From Gaiellaceae bacterium (GTDB taxonomy: Bacteria > Actinomycetota > Thermoleophilia > Gaiellales > Gaiellaceae), in NCBI GenBank assembly GCA_035688315.1, contig DASSND010000066.1, positions 4,237 to 68,236 on the forward strand: a DNA stretch of 64,000 nucleotides, given 5' to 3'. How positions within the stretch are numbered: position 1 is the stretch's first letter; every line of letters starts with the position of its first letter. Below, in pieces: positions 36,911-42,152 of this stretch. Both the position numbers and the translations under genes were made by a program. The notes under the pieces were generated by a model that saw nothing but the letters and a program-made list of their open reading frames with translations, ran no database searches and was not told the origin of the DNA.

Positions 36911-36939
36911 TTGATTGTCACGCTAGACAACGCTACGGT
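36911..36939 (+). promoter_or_regulatory. Candidate sigma-70/HrdB-type promoter for the RiPP operon (-35 TTGATT, 17-nt spacer, -10 TACGGT), followed by the SD AGGAGG at 36959..36964
   Basis: It lies in the 108-nt divergent spacer 36861..36968, one of the few relatively AT-rich spacers in the window (...gagaatttcttattgctgtcc...cttgattgtcacgctagacaacgctacggtggg...gagaggaggaaagATG). The call rests on a hexamer match only. Confidence 0.35.
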
Positions 36940-36968
36940 GGGCTGCGTCGTCCACGAGAGGAGGAAAG

Positions 36969-37130
36969 ATGTTCGATCCGGAGACGAGCCCCGGGCTCGA
37001 CCTGACCGTCGCCGAGCGGGGTCACGGCGCCGGGCACGCGCTGCCCGCGTTCCCGCTCTGCTGCTGCCTCGTGCTCTGCGTCGCCCTCGGCTGCAGCAGC
37101 AGTTGCGCGAAGGCGAACAAGGCCGAGTAG
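36969..37130 (+). CDS. TOMM/LAP precursor peptide (53 aa), SagA-like Cys/Ser-rich core
   Basis: Not in the ORF track because it is under 60 aa. Manual translation: MFDPETSPGLDLTVAERGHGAGHALPAFPLCCCLVLCVALGCSSSCAKANKAE*. A strong SD (AGGAGG) sits 4 nt upstream. The TAG stop overlaps the GTG of the cyclodehydratase C-protein gene (TAGTG). It sits immediately 5' of the C-D-B genes. Confidence 0.8.
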   Translation: MFDPETSPGLDLTVAERGHGAGHALPAFPLCCCLVLCVALGCSSSCAKANKAE

Positions 37131-39440: not shown

Positions 39441-40240
39441 CCGACGCTCCCGCACCGGTCCTGCGCTCGCTCGTCTACGGCGCGGCAACCCCCGACCTCG
39501 ACGACCCCGCCGAGATCTTCCACGAGGCGTCGCGGCTCTATCCGGCGCTCGCGGAGCGCCAGGGAGCGGGCATCTCGCAGCTGGCCGCGAGTCCCGCCTT
39601 GCAGGAGGCGACGCTGCGTGCGGTCCGCCGAAACCCGCACCTGCCGCGGGTGCGGCTCACCGCCGCGGAGCCGCCGGACTGCTCGCTCTGGAGCGCGCTC
39701 GAGCGACGGCGGAGCCGTGCCGCCGACCAGCCGCTCCGGCTTCCGCTCGCGGTGCTCGGGCTCGTGCTCCGAGCCGCGTACGGGCCGAATGCGAGCGGGC
39801 GACGCACGACGCCGTCCGGAGGCGCGCTCTACCCGCTCGAGCTGTACGCGGTCGCGCAGCGCGTCGAGGGACTCGAGCCCGGGGTCTACCACCTCGACCC
39901 GGCGCGCCCGGCGCTCGAGCGCGTCCCCGCCGACGCCGTCGCGACCGCGCTCGCCGAGGCGACGCCGTTGCCGGAGCTGGTGACGACCGCCGCCGCGGTG
40001 CTCTTCCTGACGGCGGTCTTCTGGCGGACGCGGGTGAAGTACGGCCTGCGCGGCTACCGCTTCGCGCTCCTCGAGGCGGGCCACGTCGCCCAGAACGTGC
40101 TGCTCGCGGCGACGGCGCTCGAGCTTCCGGCGCTCCCGCTCGGCGGCTTCTACGACGCGAGGGTCGACGAGCTGCTCGGCGTCGACGGCGTGGACGAGTC
40201 GGTTCTCTACGGCGTCGTCCTCGGAGGGCGCGCGGGATGA
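39437..40240 (+). CDS. SagB-type FMN-dependent dehydrogenase (nitroreductase fold)
   Basis: In-frame GTG at 39437 (GTGA overlap). Contains RRTTPSGGALYPLELY, VFWRTRVKYGLRGYRFALLEAGHVAQNVLLAA (including the Lys-Tyr motif) and LPLGGFYD. Confidence 0.8.
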   Translation: MTDAPAPVLRSLVYGAATPDLDDPAEIFHEASRLYPALAERQGAGISQLAASPALQEATLRAVRRNPHLPRVRLTAAEPPDCSLWSALERRRSRAADQPLRLPLAVLGLVLRAAYGPNASGRRTTPSGGALYPLELYAVAQRVEGLEPGVYHLDPARPALERVPADAVATALAEATPLPELVTTAAAVLFLTAVFWRTRVKYGLRGYRFALLEAGHVAQNVLLAATALELPALPLGGFYDARVDELLGVDGVDESVLYGVVLGGRAG

Positions 40241-41427
40241 GCGGCCGCCGGGCGCTGCTCGCGGCGGCGTTCCCGGTCGCCGCGGTCGGGCTGTTCCTGC
40301 TCGTCCCGACCCCGCCGCCGGCGCCTCCCGCCTCGCTCCCGGCGGCGGTCGGGGCGGGCACGGTCACCGCGCTCGGGCTGTATCTCCTCCTCGCCGGCGG
40401 CAGACCGGGCCTGCTCCCGACCCCCGTGCTGCTCGCGGCCGCGGTCGCCGTCGGGGCGAGCGAGGAGGCGATCTGGCGCGCGTTCGCGCTCGCGCGGCTC
40501 GCACCGGCGCTCGGGGCGTTCGCGGCGCTCGCGCTCGTGAGCCTTGCATTCGCGGCGCAGCACTACCCCGCCCAGGGCGCTCGCGGGGTGCGCGTCCACG
40601 TGCTGACCGGAGCGGTCTTCGGCGTCCTCTTCCTCGCGAGCGGCAGCCTCGTCGCCGCGGCGGTCGCCCACGCGCTCTACAACGTGCTCACGGTCGGGGC
40701 GGGCGGGCTGCCGCTGCCGGCCGATCCGCTGCTCGCAGTGCGCGGCGTGCGCAAGCGCTACGGCCGCGTCGAGGCGCTCGCCGGCGTCGATCTCGAGGTC
40801 GGCGAGAGCGAGGTGGTGGCGCTGCTCGGGCCGAACGGCGCCGGCAAGACGACCCTGCTCGACCTCGTGCTGGGGCTGCGTCATGCCGACGAGGGGGCCG
40901 TCGCGGTGCTCGGACGGCGGCCCGGCTCGCGCGAGTGCCGGCACGACGTGGCCGCGACCCCGCAGGACATGTCCTTCCCGCCGACGCTCCGCGTGCGAGA
41001 GATCCTCGGGTTCGTCCTCGCCCACCACCGCCGCCGCCTCGCCGTCGACGAGGTGCTCGAGCGGTTCGGGCTGACAGAGGTCGCGCGCCGGCAGGCGGGC
41101 GGCCTCTCCGGGGGCCAGCGCCGGCGGCTCGCGGTCGCGCTCGCGTTCGCCCCGCAACCGCGCCTCGCGATCCTCGACGAGCCGACCGCGGGCCTCGACG
41201 TCGAGTCGCGACGAGACGTGTGGCGGGCGATCCTCGCCCAGGCCGACAGCGGCCGCACCGTGCTGTTCACGACCCACCACCTCGACGAGGCGGAGGCGCT
41301 CGCGACGCGGATCGTCGTGCTGGCTCGCGGCCGGGTCGCCGCCGACGACGCCGCCGCGGCGCTCCGAGCTGCCGGGGAGGCGTCGCTCGAGTCTGCCTAC
41401 CTGCGGCTCACCGGAGCGGGCGCGTGA
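40237..41427 (+). CDS. Fusion protein: N-terminal CPBP (CAAX/Abi) intramembrane protease domain plus a C-terminal ABC transporter ATP-binding domain
   Basis: 396 aa. The N-terminal approx. 165 aa has 4-5 TM helices with the CPBP motifs SEEAIWRAF (EExxxR), FAAQHY (FxxxH) and AHALYN (HxxxN). This is followed by LLAVRGVRKRYG..., Walker A GPNGAGKTT, signature LSGGQRRRL and Walker B LAILDEPTAGLD. Confidence 0.8.
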   Translation: MSGRRALLAAAFPVAAVGLFLLVPTPPPAPPASLPAAVGAGTVTALGLYLLLAGGRPGLLPTPVLLAAAVAVGASEEAIWRAFALARLAPALGAFAALALVSLAFAAQHYPAQGARGVRVHVLTGAVFGVLFLASGSLVAAAVAHALYNVLTVGAGGLPLPADPLLAVRGVRKRYGRVEALAGVDLEVGESEVVALLGPNGAGKTTLLDLVLGLRHADEGAVAVLGRRPGSRECRHDVAATPQDMSFPPTLRVREILGFVLAHHRRRLAVDEVLERFGLTEVARRQAGGLSGGQRRRLAVALAFAPQPRLAILDEPTAGLDVESRRDVWRAILAQADSGRTVLFTTHHLDEAEALATRIVVLARGRVAADDAAAALRAAGEASLESAYLRLTGAGA

Positions 41428-42152
41428 GGCTCGGGCTCGTCTACGCGCGCCTGCAGCTCGTCGAGCTGGTCCGCTTCCCGGGCTTCACGGTGGCGACGCT
41501 CGGGTTCCCGGCGCTGCTCTTCGGCCTGTTCGGGCTCCCGCGCGCCGGCGCGCACCCCGAGGCGATCGTCGCGTCGTACATGGCGTTCGCCGCGCTCGGC
41601 GTCGGCTTCTTCCAGTTCGGCGTGTCGGCGGCGATCGAGCGGGCGACGCCGTGGGCGGTGTTCTTGCGGACGCTGCCGGCGCCGGCTGCCGCCAGGATCG
41701 CCGGCCGGGTTCTCGCCGCGCTTGCGTTCACGGCGGCGGCGATCGCGCTCGTCCTCTGCCTCGCGCTCGCGACGACGCACCTCAGCCTGTCGCCGCTCGC
41801 CTGGGCGCGCCTCGCGGTCGCGCTGCTCGGCGGGAGCGTCCCCTTCGTGGTGCTCGGCGTCGCGATCGCGTACTGGACGACGCCGAAGAGCGCGCTGCCG
41901 GTCGCCAACGTGCTCTACATGCTGCTCTCGTACGCGGGCGGGCTCTGGACGGGCGGGAGCGACCTCCCGCACCTCGCCGCGCGGATCTCGCCCTACACAC
42001 CCACGCGGCAGTGGGGCGACGTTCTCTGGCCGGCGGCGCTGGGGCTGCCCTGGAGCGGGCGTCACTGGCTCGCCCTGACCGGCTTCACCGCGGCGTTCGC
42101 GGCCGCCGCGATCTGGGGCTATCGCCGGGACGAAGGGCAACGGTTCCGATGA
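41424..42152 (+). CDS. ABC-2 type transporter permease
   Basis: In-frame GTG at 41424 (GTGA overlap). Sequence: VRLGLVYARLQLVELVRFPGFTVATLGFPALLFGLFG... 242 aa with six TM segments. Confidence 0.7.
   Translation: MRLGLVYARLQLVELVRFPGFTVATLGFPALLFGLFGLPRAGAHPEAIVASYMAFAALGVGFFQFGVSAAIERATPWAVFLRTLPAPAAARIAGRVLAALAFTAAAIALVLCLALATTHLSLSPLAWARLAVALLGGSVPFVVLGVAIAYWTTPKSALPVANVLYMLLSYAGGLWTGGSDLPHLAARISPYTPTRQWGDVLWPAALGLPWSGRHWLALTGFTAAFAAAAIWGYRRDEGQRFR

Follow-up and report, generated by a model that had tools for sequence, protein, structure and literature searches.

Organization of the operon

A run of six plus-strand genes in a Gaiellaceae MAG (Thermoleophilia, Actinomycetota) raised the question of whether it encodes a working pathway for a linear azole-containing peptide and, if so, what that peptide might do. 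A sequence-only reading had proposed a complete TOMM/LAP operon with the order A-C-D-B-E::G-H and a real Cys/Ser-rich precursor. HMMs, PDB profiles, AlphaFold/Foldseek comparisons and synteny agreed with this, and we consider it highly likely that the locus is a functional TOMM/LAP RiPP biosynthetic operon. The six translationally coupled genes all lie where that reading had placed them, at 36969 to 42152 of the window (the whole 64,000-nucleotide stretch that was analyzed), and the details that it quoted (CHEC and CPAC in C, ...NPDPHPFP in D, RVKYGLRGY in B, and six Cys plus three Ser in a 24-aa core) are all present.

The six ORFs are intact and have overlapping stop and start codons. The GTG of C overlaps the stop codon of A (TAGTG), the ATG of D lies 26 nt inside C, and the D/B, B/E::G and E::G/H junctions are GTGA, ATGA and GTGA overlaps, respectively. 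Third-position G+C (GC3) is 0.92 to 0.96 in all six frames (the window is ~75% G+C). A second, independent assembly from run SRR26663109 (Logan; locus L080) was 100% identical across window positions 36277 to 40848, a span that covers the CPBP-to-ABC junction. No dedicated immunity or regulator gene was evident within the operon, and nothing resembling a terminator was found downstream of H.

The precursor peptide

Gene A (36969 to 37130, plus strand) encodes a real 53-aa precursor peptide, and the gene caller of the SRR26663109 assembly also predicted this ORF. Alignment suggests a leader of approximately residues 1 to 29 (MFDPETSPGLDLTVAERGHGAGHALPAFP) and a core of approximately residues 30 to 53 (LCCCLVLCVALGCSSSCAKANKAE). 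Homologues of A lie directly upstream of C in ~45 related loci sharing the A-C-D-B-E-G-H order, and their alignment revealed a common leader, MF(D/T)ELTEELLDL..G..(Y/F)A, and hypervariable Cys/Ser cores. Distant relatives with Cys-rich precursors upstream of C were found in Clavibacter, Planctomonas and Angustibacter, and also in Eremiobacterota, Streptococcus pseudopneumoniae and Undibacterium. A profile search with the A family matched 417 database clusters; each is labelled "hypothetical," and no curated model covers any of them. The core of A matched no curated precursor family, which fits the earlier suggestion of an undescribed product. It is hydrophobic (GRAVY 1.18 overall and 2.21 over the first 17 residues), and its longest heterocyclisable run is five residues, CSSSC. 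The unmodified full precursor has a monoisotopic mass of 5359.51 Da.

Promoter-like and operator-like elements

Upstream of A we noted a promoter-like element (36911 to 36939, plus strand) comprised of a -35 hexamer (TTGATT, 36911 to 36916), a 17-nt spacer and a -10 hexamer (TACGGT, 36934 to 36939). Eight related loci have the same hexamers at the same spacing as the window, whereas the DNA around these varies, and this conservation suggests a promoter function; the consensus match was too weak for the element to be listed by a sigma-70 scan of the region. The start coordinate given in the earlier reading, 36911, is the first base of the conserved -35-like hexamer. Within the spacer is an operator-like inverted repeat, TTGTC-N6-GACAA (36915 to 36930, unstranded), which is conserved in related loci and reads TTGTCAA-TC-TTGACAA in relatives; the 64-kb window has a single copy of it, where chance would give 0.02. 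A second palindrome, ATGGC-N7-GCCAT (36893 to 36909, unstranded, reported as a stem), lies directly upstream of the -35 hexamer and is a candidate regulator site. It is kept in the nine closest loci, and in locus L002 both arms are changed (ATGTC...GACAT) with the symmetry kept. The ribosome-binding site, GGAGG (36960 to 36964, plus strand), is 4 nt ahead of the precursor ATG, and (A/G)GGAGG is kept at this position in related loci.

The modification enzymes C, D and B

C (37130 to 38107, plus strand) is an E1-like, non-catalytic cyclodehydratase partner; its N terminus forms a winged-helix (RRE) domain for leader binding, and it has a CxxC...CxxC site. The NCBI version, 323 aa, uses the alternative start GTG 37136. 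The E1-like assignment was borne out by a narrow pass against TIGR03882 (39 bits; cutoff, 36.9) and by profile matches in the PDB to TruD (1.3e-18), LynD (1.9e-17), MccB (2.4e-10) and the PbtF RRE (1.8e-4), and in TruD, LynD and MusD the region matched is the N-terminal E1/RRE part. The AlphaFold model (pLDDT 82) has three strands and then three helices at residues 24 to 89, and Foldseek matched it to TruD/LynD (1e-15) and then to MccB, PaaA, McbB, MoeB and ThiF. The cysteines of CHEC and CPAC (C224/C227 and C302/C305) are invariant in 29 homologues. In NCBI, a protein 100% identical to C carries the name "TOMM precursor leader peptide-binding protein."

D (38082 to 39440, plus strand) is a cyclodehydratase of the YcaO family, which forms azolines at the expense of ATP, and it ends in a PxPxPxP tail. 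Both YcaO models were above cutoff, PF02624 at 2.4e-62 and TIGR03604 at 288.9 bits (cutoff, 219.25), and the D profile matched the YcaO part of MusD, TruD and LynD at ~1e-40. Residues E90/E93/R94 and E205/E208/R209 are invariant in the homologue alignment, as are N445 and P448-H449-P450-F451-P452 of the C terminus in 17 homologues. B (39437 to 40240, plus strand) is a SagB-type FMN-dependent azoline dehydrogenase, as had been proposed (PF00881, 2.1e-20; TIGR03605, 134.7 bits against a cutoff of 78.4), with PDB matches to McbC (7.8e-12) and CyaGox (7e-11). The Lys-Tyr pair of its RVKYGLRGY motif is kept in all aligned homologues except one.

The protease-ATPase fusion and the permease

The claim that a CPBP protease and an ABC ATPase are fused in one protein was also upheld. 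E::G (40237 to 41427, plus strand) is a single protein of 396 aa, in which a membrane CPBP (Rce1-like) protease domain (approximately residues 1 to 160; window 40237 to 40716) is followed by an ABC transporter ATPase (approximately residues 165 to 396). PF02517 matched residues 61 to 151 (3.3e-14) and PF00005 matched residues 182 to 318 (7.2e-29), both above their curated cutoffs, and the hydrophobic segments are confined to the first 160 residues. The CPBP motifs EEAIWR, FAAQH and HALYN (E76/E77, H109 and H145) are largely retained in relatives (EExxWR, 35/35; FxxxH, 35/35; HxxYN, 33/34). The fusion recurs in 12 of 34 related loci and in all 10 of the 50%-identity cluster representatives checked. 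Because proteins of the CPBP type can confer immunity to bacteriocins as well as cleave leaders, a protease function for E is uncertain.

H (41424 to 42152, plus strand) is an ABC-2 type permease with multiple hydrophobic segments, presumably a homodimer partnering E::G. The window protein scored just below the PF01061 cutoff (23.8 against 26.9 bits), and all 11 aligned orthologues matched this family (best, 4.6e-12). H always follows G in related loci.

Comparison with known azole-peptide systems

The locus had been described as streptolysin-S-like, with the full functional inventory of sagA-I. According to PMC4603692, every cytolysin cluster encodes separate C and D proteins along with a SagB-type dehydrogenase, a CaaX-like protease and an exporter of the ABC-2 type. 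The Gaiellaceae operon shares these parts (its CaaX-like membrane protease being the CPBP domain), together with a precursor of ~50 aa with a Cys-rich core, and some of its relatives, like some cytolysin clusters, have two precursor genes (PMC4603692). The inventory claim nevertheless was overstated; most parts are present, but the operon lacks an equivalent of sagF and has one permease instead of two. Its protease and ATPase form a single polypeptide, and the order differs from the A-B-C-D-E-F-G-H-I of streptolysin S. The likeness is therefore one of parts and not of family membership, since C fails the SagC-family model TIGR03603 (15.8 bits; cutoff, 187.65). The core of A also lacks the cytolysin hallmark. 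Every cytolysin precursor core identified has a run of at least 10 heterocyclisable residues (PMC4603692), whereas that of A has no Gly followed by such a contiguous run. It is much more hydrophobic than that of streptolysin S, and the host is a soil actinobacterium rather than a pathogen.

Among solved structures, the cyanobactin heterocyclases TruD, LynD and MusD come closest to C as well as to D, and the N-terminal E1-like and RRE part of TruD/LynD resembles C at 1e-18 by sequence profile and 1e-15 by Foldseek. Unlike in cyanobactin pathways, where C and D are one fused protein, they are separate here; the precursor has one core instead of cassettes flanked by recognition sites, and the PatA/PatG subtilisin-like proteases are absent, so macrocyclisation is not expected. 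From work on LynD and PatE, the PatE recognition sequence reportedly binds the LynD RRE, and the acidic, Leu-rich LTEELLDL of the relatives resembles it. A literature search for the PatE recognition sequence found nothing, and we treat this likeness as a lead.

The plantazolicin cluster reportedly has the order pznA-J-C-D-B-E (Scholz and coworkers, 2011); its succession of precursor, C, D, B and membrane protease matches the Gaiellaceae operon. Its precursor is also small (~45 aa), and PznE is the leader protease (PMC5100339). The exporter genes, which follow the protease here, are upstream in the plantazolicin cluster. The core of A does not start with Arg and lacks the pattern of plantazolicin cores, 5 + 2 nonpolar + 5-6 (PMC4603692), and no PznL-type methyltransferase was found in or beside the operon. 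Plantazolicin-type clusters occur in Clavibacter, Nesterenkonia and Sorangium (PMC4603692), and distant relatives of D (33 to 36% identity) were found in the same three genera. The Clavibacter loci inspected, however, proved to be C-D-B-G-H clusters with an LCCST... core rather than plantazolicin clusters.

Microcin B17 (McbBCD) follows the same three-component logic of E1-like partner, YcaO and FMN dehydrogenase. Besides the match of B to McbC, the model of C weakly matched McbB (Foldseek ~1e-6; TM, 0.37), and the D profile search did not reach McbD at E <= 0.001. Microcin B17 is rich in Gly, unlike the Cys-rich, hydrophobic core of A, and the export and immunity genes differ.

Proposed pathway and product

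Transcription would start at the conserved promoter-like element with its palindromic operator in the spacer, and the six coupled genes would be expressed together. The precursor would supply its N-terminal leader with the family motif, and the RRE domain of C would bind it and present the core to D, by analogy with LynD and TruD, the closest solved relatives. By ATP-driven cyclodehydration, D would form thiazolines from Cys and possibly oxazolines from Ser, and B, with FMN, would oxidise these to thiazoles and oxazoles; both reactions are established chemistry of these families. The product could contain up to six thiazoles and three oxazoles, each ring costing 20.03 Da. The membrane CPBP domain of E::G may then cleave off the leader close to the conserved ...A-x-(F/Y/I)-P | (L/I)-C junction, with export by the attached ATPase and H. 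In the mature peptide, a strongly hydrophobic polythiazole stretch (LCCCLVLCVALGCSSSC) would be followed by a short charged tail, AKANKAE; on the basis of this hydrophobicity the peptide is probably membrane-directed. Its role is most likely bacteriocin-like antagonism of competing bacteria, which would fit the fast-diverging enzymes and hypervariable cores.

Among related loci with enough flanking DNA, the operon occupies the same chromosomal site in 15 of 33 upstream and 14 of 29 downstream comparisons, between housekeeping-type genes that are 70 to 88% identical. D is 73 to 87% identical where the flanking FAD enzyme is 94 to 97% identical. A fixed site in about half of the checkable loci is also compatible with a physiological role: the same enzymology might yield not an exported antibiotic or toxin but a polythiazole peptide serving the producer itself (membrane-associated, metal-binding or signalling, for example), with the CPBP domain acting in self-protection or quality control rather than as a leader peptidase. 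Such a site points to long vertical retention and not to a mobile accessory island, a separate immunity gene is absent from the operon, and CPBP/Abi proteins are immunity factors in other bacteriocin systems. We regard this reading as unlikely, however, because hypervariable cores and enzymes that outpace their flanks typically mark antagonistic peptides rather than a conserved physiological cofactor, related loci always include a dedicated ABC-2 exporter, and the CPBP catalytic motifs are strictly conserved.

It is very improbable that the operon has decayed or become cryptic so that its product is no longer made. In favor of decay, the leader of A departs from the family at several positions. 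The family leader motif is F-D-x-L-x-x-x-L-L-D-L; A reads FDPETSPGLDL, where PETSPG replaces ELTEEL, and the residue ahead of an invariant Ala is L in place of the usual Y/F, so leader recognition could be weaker. The inner operator palindrome is degenerate relative to that of related loci. Elsewhere in the family, decay may occur, since matches to D or C are split or truncated in L031, L041, L043, L045 and L046, as would fit frameshifts or assembly errors. Against decay in the window itself, the six coupled frames are intact with high GC3 throughout, all catalytic and structural motifs checked are present, and the promoter hexamers and ribosome-binding site are intact. Finally, although long spurious ORFs occur in every frame at 75% G+C, the idea that A is a chance ORF and the real substrate is encoded elsewhere is effectively refuted by its GC3 of 0.944, its GGAGG site, the change of the high-GC3 frame exactly at 37130 (the start of C), homologous peptides encoded at the equivalent place in dozens of loci, the 417 matching clusters and the lack of a second copy of the leader anywhere in the window.

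What is new here is the conserved putative promoter with its palindromic operator, the fixed chromosomal site of an operon that diverges much faster than its flanks, and the protease-ATPase fusion recurring in relatives. The pathway type is already well known, and the operon is a new example of it rather than a new kind of system, as a member of a large, unstudied operon family from uncultured soil Gaiellaceae.

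Integrity of the six-gene operon

The G+C content of the window is about 75% and ORFs are open in all frames, so genes were called from base composition by codon position and from the gene-to-gene junctions. Third-position G+C was 0.92 to 0.96 in all six plus-strand ORFs, and the high-GC3 frame switches exactly at the gene handovers. Gene A (36969-37130, plus strand), which encodes the 53-aa precursor and has a GGAGG four bases 5' of its ATG, is followed on the same strand by genes for the E1-like partner C (37130-38107), the YcaO protein D (38082-39440), the dehydrogenase B (39437-40240), the protease-ATPase fusion E::G (40237-41427) and the permease H (41424-42152). 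The A/C junction is TAGTG, C and D overlap by 26 nt, and the remaining junctions are GTGA (D/B), ATGA (B/E::G) and GTGA (E::G/H). There is no room for an additional gene between 36969 and 42152, and the operon consists of only these six coupled genes, all of which are intact. The Logan assembly of run SRR26663109 is identical to the window over 36277-40848; in that assembly the 53-aa ORF is called as a gene and the protease-ATPase fusion junction is spanned. Taken with the GC3 pattern and the junctions, this identity indicates that the six-gene operon proposed in the sequence-only reading is present and is not a chance pattern.

No Rfam match to a structured RNA or riboswitch was obtained in 36000-43000 at E <= 0.1, and no intrinsic terminator was found 3' of H. 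Both terminator-like stems detected are located 5' of A; one is the conserved palindrome at 36893-36909.

The cyclodehydratase and dehydrogenase

D matched PF02624 (2.4e-62) and the TOMM SagD-type model TIGR03604 (288.9 bits; cutoff, 219.25). Its Glu motifs (E90/E93/R94 and E205/E208/R209) and its proline-rich C-terminal tail, NxxPHPFP, are invariant in 17 homologues, and the best identity among the top matches listed in the protein search was 70%. B matched TIGR03605 (134.7 bits; cutoff, 78.4) and carries the Lys-Tyr motif RVKYGLRGY, the KY of which is retained in all aligned homologues except one. The PDB relatives of B are McbC and the cyanobactin oxidase CyaGox.

C gave the weakest sequence evidence (TIGR03882, 39 bits; cutoff, 36.9) and was for this reason examined further by profile search, AlphaFold modeling and Foldseek. 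A profile of 29 sequences matched the N-terminal part of TruD (1.3e-18), LynD and MusD, then MccB, and also matched the isolated RRE domain of PbtF. In the AlphaFold model (pLDDT 82), three strands followed by three helices occupy residues 24-89 and precede a Rossmann-like E1 fold. Foldseek with this model returned TruD/LynD (1e-15), then MccB, PaaA, McbB, MoeB and ThiF, and both CxxC pairs of C are invariant. An NCBI protein that is 100% identical to C is named [quoted passage not shown], and the lineage of its source is Actinomycetota, Thermoleophilia, Gaiellales.

Thus, the YcaO, E1-like and SagB models all scored above their cutoffs, and the three assignments originally made from the sequence alone (a YcaO with a PxPxP-type tail, an E1-like partner with an RRE-like N-domain and two CxxC pairs, and a SagB-type FMN dehydrogenase with a Lys-Tyr motif) were upheld. 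The gene-level features of a TOMM/LAP cluster are all present: a YcaO with the Glu motifs and a PxPxP end, an E1-like/RRE partner, a SagB-type dehydrogenase and an adjacent Cys/Ser/Thr-rich precursor.

The protease-ATPase fusion and the exporter

E::G is a single chain comprising an Rce1-like CPBP domain (residues 61-151; PF02517, 3.3e-14) and an ABC ATPase domain (residues 182-318; PF00005, 7.2e-29). CPBP (type II CAAX/Rce1-like) proteases are recognized by the motifs EExxxR, FxxxH and HxxxN/D within transmembrane segments. E::G has hydrophobic segments and contains EEAIWR (76), FAAQH (105) and HALYN (145), and these motifs are retained in 35/35, 35/35 and 33/34 relatives, respectively. Protease and ATPase are fused in 12 of 34 loci, the closest loci included; they are encoded by separate genes in the remainder. 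In an exhaustive search of 1.84 billion cluster representatives, end-to-end matches of about 400 to 500 aa were prominent among the best matches, and all ten of those representatives that were checked contain both domains. The occurrence of the fusion in these loci and in the ten database representatives establishes that it is recurrent and real and is not unique to the source genome.

H scored 23.8 bits against PF01061, below the cutoff of 26.9, and a PDB profile search with H gave no significant match. All 11 of its 11 orthologues matched PF01061 (best, 4.6e-12), so the earlier call of an ABC-2 permease beside a CPBP protease fused to an ABC ATPase was substantiated. With an ABC ATPase domain (PF00005) encoded beside an ABC-2 family permease, the operon has the makeup of an ABC-2 type exporter.

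A hypervariable precursor family

Homologues of the 53-aa peptide were found by tblastn directly upstream of C among 79 loci encoding relatives of D, as had been expected if the small ORF is conserved ahead of homologous C-D-B genes. The alignment revealed a shared leader, MF(D/T)ELTEELLDL(R/T)VxE(K/R)G...(Y/F)A, ahead of a Cys/Ser/Thr-rich core that is hypervariable. A precursor profile search returned at least 417 clusters at 90% identity. Clusters with a named source are all annotated "hypothetical protein" and are attributed to Gaiella or Gaiellaceae. When 22 family members were scanned against Pfam and NCBIfam at E <= 1, only noise was returned; the statement that the core resembles no characterised LAP holds insofar as no precursor model in these collections matches.

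The window peptide is of a hydrophobic-core, charged-tail subtype, ...AFP(L/I)CCS(V/I)VLCCSSSCSE..., which accounts for 12 of the best 120 matches; another frequent subtype ends ...VILCCTCTTLCW. Judged from the alignment, the window peptide is a somewhat deviant family member: its leader reads PETSPG in place of the usual ELTEEL, and Leu replaces Tyr/Phe before the invariant Ala. Its core, LCCCLVLCVALGCSSSCAKANKAE, begins (P)LCCC, and its longest Cys/Ser/Thr runs are CCC (3) and CSSSC (5). When the window was searched by tblastn with its own peptide, two divergent relatives and the consensus leader of the family, the only match was at 36969-37127, and no second precursor copy was found.

Tandem precursor genes with different cores were observed in four related loci (L016, 2090-2358; L020, 4602-4860; L032, 4715-5015; L027, 4758-5021). 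In L027 a single 87-aa ORF covers both copies; an Arg/Leu-rich stretch takes the place of the upstream core region, and the upstream copy may be a frameshifted duplicate.

A putative promoter and operator upstream of A

Alignment of the 140 bases 5' of A with those of 13 related loci revealed a block that is nearly invariant in the window and its 8 closest relatives, the neighboring DNA being variable. The block contains a palindrome, ATGGC-N7-GCCAT (36893-36909), which shows a symmetric double change in the related locus L002, and a conserved promoter-like element consisting of TTGATT (36911-36916, plus strand), a 17-nt spacer and TACGGT (36934-36939, plus strand). Within the spacer lies an inverted repeat, TTGTC-N6-GACAA (36915-36930; TTGTCAA-TC-TTGACAA in relatives), which occurs once in the window versus 0.02 times expected by chance. 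A sigma-70 scan listed no plus-strand promoter, and TTGATT-N17-TACGGT was seen only through the alignment of relatives. We infer that 36911-36939 is a putative promoter with an operator in its spacer, an arrangement in which the operon would probably be repressed by a regulator. There is no regulator gene within the operon.

Comparison with known azole peptide groups

The sequence-only reading described the operon as streptolysin S-like, with the full sag inventory. The parts expected of a cytolysin cluster (a discrete cyclodehydratase, a dehydrogenase, an ABC transporter and a CaaX-like protease) do occur together, and to this extent the description stands. However, C scored only 15.8 bits against the SagC family model TIGR03603, whose cutoff is 187.65. 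Cytolysin-group cores have a Gly followed by at least 10 contiguous potentially heterocyclised residues (PMC4603692), whereas the window core lacks this feature and its longest run is 5. The sag operon also contains a sagF-like membrane protein and two permeases (sagH and sagI); the window operon has no sagF and one permease, and its gene order, A-C-D-B-E::G-H, differs. The threshold used to delimit isofunctional groups of D proteins is a BLAST E value of < 1e-54 (PMC4603692). The sole Streptococcus relative retrieved (L047, from S. pseudopneumoniae) encodes a D that is 29% identical, and it has the order C-D-B and so is not a sag operon. Membership in the cytolysin group was rejected on the features tested, namely, the SagC model, the core hallmark, sagF and the second permease, and gene order.

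A plantazolicin-type reading was considered because distant relatives of D occur in genera from which plantazolicin clusters have been reported (PMC4603692), and the C-D-B-protease order of the window resembles that of the plantazolicin cluster. That class is defined by a PznL-type SAM methyltransferase and a core starting with Arg and then a heterocyclisable residue. No methyltransferase domain was found in the operon proteins or in the Pfam-matched flanking genes, two flanking ORFs being without any Pfam match. This result, a core that does not begin with Arg, and Clavibacter loci with the order C-D-B-G-H and LCCST... cores ruled out this reading. Cyanobactin heterocyclases are the nearest to the window cyclodehydratase by both sequence and structure, but the cyanobactin pathway has fused C-D and PatA/PatG, whereas C and D of the window are separate ORFs, and no subtilisin-like protease is present among the operon proteins. 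A separate, uncharacterised LAP family is thus the description that fits the operon best.

Distribution and evolution of the locus

About 45 loci share the A-C-D-B-E-G-H order, the majority from Gaiellaceae and other Thermoleophilia; it also occurs in two Eremiobacterota MAGs. Remoter relatives with C-D-B and a Cys-rich precursor occur in Clavibacter, Planctomonas, Angustibacter, Streptococcus pseudopneumoniae, Undibacterium and Rugamonas. In Dermacoccus abyssi, Crossiella sp. and Nesterenkonia aerolata, the nearest cultured relatives (D identity, 36 to 40%), there is no convincing Cys-rich ORF 5' of C, and these organisms are therefore not obvious experimental stand-ins. We also noted related A-C-D-B-G-H clusters in cultured plant-associated actinobacteria, two from Clavibacter (L068, 4525-5061; L060, 4750-5058) and one from Planctomonas (L062, 4812-5072), whose precursors end ...VMGDVTLCCSTTCSSSGNGRQQQR, ...VMADVTLCCSTCCSCSSKQQPR and ...LGDITLCCSTTCSCSSSRKKQQ. 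These clusters are not plantazolicin-type and could be used as culturable models for the wider group. In several MAG loci (L031, L041, L043, L045 and L046), matches to D or C were split or truncated, which may reflect frameshifts, assembly errors or real operon decay.

The operon is flanked by divergent FAD_binding_2 oxidoreductase, fumarase-like and ComA-like genes upstream (33358-36860) and by convergent Fe-alcohol dehydrogenase and LysR regulator genes downstream (42159-44041). When both flanks were compared with related loci L001-L052, the same genes adjoined the operon in 15/33 (upstream) and 14/29 (downstream) of the loci with enough flanking DNA. Identity to the window was 70 to 88% for the flanks, versus 38 to 73% for the operon proteins. 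Among 14 syntenic loci, FAD-enzyme pairs that are 94 to 97% identical have D proteins only 73 to 87% identical, and D identity is 47 to 63% at about 86% flank identity. The flanks of L037 are 80 to 88% identical to those of the window; its D is 43% (tblastn) or 48% (pairwise alignment) identical, and its precursor leader is of a different type (MLREVARELDLEIERRG...TLTLCCCMSCSCC). This contrast between flanks and operon points to an operon that has long occupied one site and that would either evolve very fast in situ or be replaced by divergent operon types. Fast divergence or replacement at a fixed site fits the use of the peptides in antagonism.

A second operon type was observed at the same chromosomal site in L037 (4818-5081 and 8102-8488) and also in L046 and L036. 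It has the precursor leader MLREVARELDLEIERRGRSRTPLAMTLTLCCCMSCSCCGGSGKK and a separate 128-aa CPBP gene, which is too divergent for detection by tblastn with the E domain of the window.

On the minus strand, 33358-36860 contains, besides the FAD_binding_2 oxidoreductase gene, genes for a homologue of (2R)-phospho-3-sulfolactate synthase (ComA) and for a protein with a fumarase C-terminal domain, and an ORF without a Pfam match. The ComA/fumarase/FAD set, which could form a sulfolactate-type pathway, is highly conserved in Gaiellaceae and unrelated to the peptide operon. A sigma-70-like site, GTGACG-N17-TATAGT (minus strand, 36860-36832), falls within the initial codons of the longest FAD ORF, and the start of that gene is for this reason probably further downstream.

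Proposed maturation and significance

In these families the leader is recognized by the RRE of the E1-like protein. The YcaO, in an ATP-dependent reaction, forms azolines from Cys, Ser and Thr, and the FMN enzyme then oxidises these to azoles. By analogy, the RRE of C would bind the conserved LLDL-containing leader segment, and up to 6 thiazoles and 3 oxazoles could form on the core. The CPBP domain might then cut close to the conserved junction A-x-(F/Y/I)-P | (L/I)-C, predicted to be near P29|L30 in the window peptide, with E::G and H exporting the product. The product may act on other bacteria, probably at the membrane because of the hydrophobicity of the core (GRAVY 1.18; 2.21 over the first 17 residues). 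The calculated mass shift is -20.03 Da per azole. The full precursor without modification has a calculated monoisotopic mass of 5359.51 Da; for a core that begins at Leu30 the values are 2388.08 Da before modification, 2267.92 Da if 6 thiazoles form and 2207.84 Da for 9 azoles.

The Thermoleophilia, including Gaiellaceae, are actinobacteria that abound in soil, and almost none of them have been cultured; we know of no characterised natural product from them. Literature searches found no paper on Gaiella and YcaO or on Thermoleophilia and linear azole-containing peptides, no paper describing this LAP family, and no match for the PatE recognition sequence. A 2026 preprint was the one relevant paper found; it gives a count of "LAP-associated clusters in Thermoleophilia" but no description. 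The enzymology follows textbook TOMM chemistry and changes no concept. The kind of system is well known and recognized automatically; C already has its NCBI name, and the cluster should be picked up by routine genome-mining tools. The promoter/operator block and the evolution of the locus are additions to the sequence-only reading.

The operon is a good compact natural-product discovery target from an uncultured lineage, offering a large library of natural cores, a recurrent fusion and interesting locus dynamics. As it is compact (5.2 kb) and complete, it could be synthesized, and it opens up a precursor family whose natural cores number in the hundreds and are Cys-rich, often hydrophobic and without a curated family match. 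Possible yields are new polythiazole peptides and a leader/RRE pair for engineering, as well as a test case for whether a CPBP-ABC ATPase fusion couples leader removal to export. Tentatively, and with more doubt than belief, we propose that this is an undescribed Gaiellaceae-wide LAP family (at least 417 precursor clusters, with no curated model) held at one chromosomal site, where enzymes, leader type and core would diversify or be swapped between operon types. Its peptides might serve strain-specific antagonism or kin discrimination, on a strongly hydrophobic polythiazole scaffold that would be new and would mature through a fused CPBP-ABC cleave-and-export protein.
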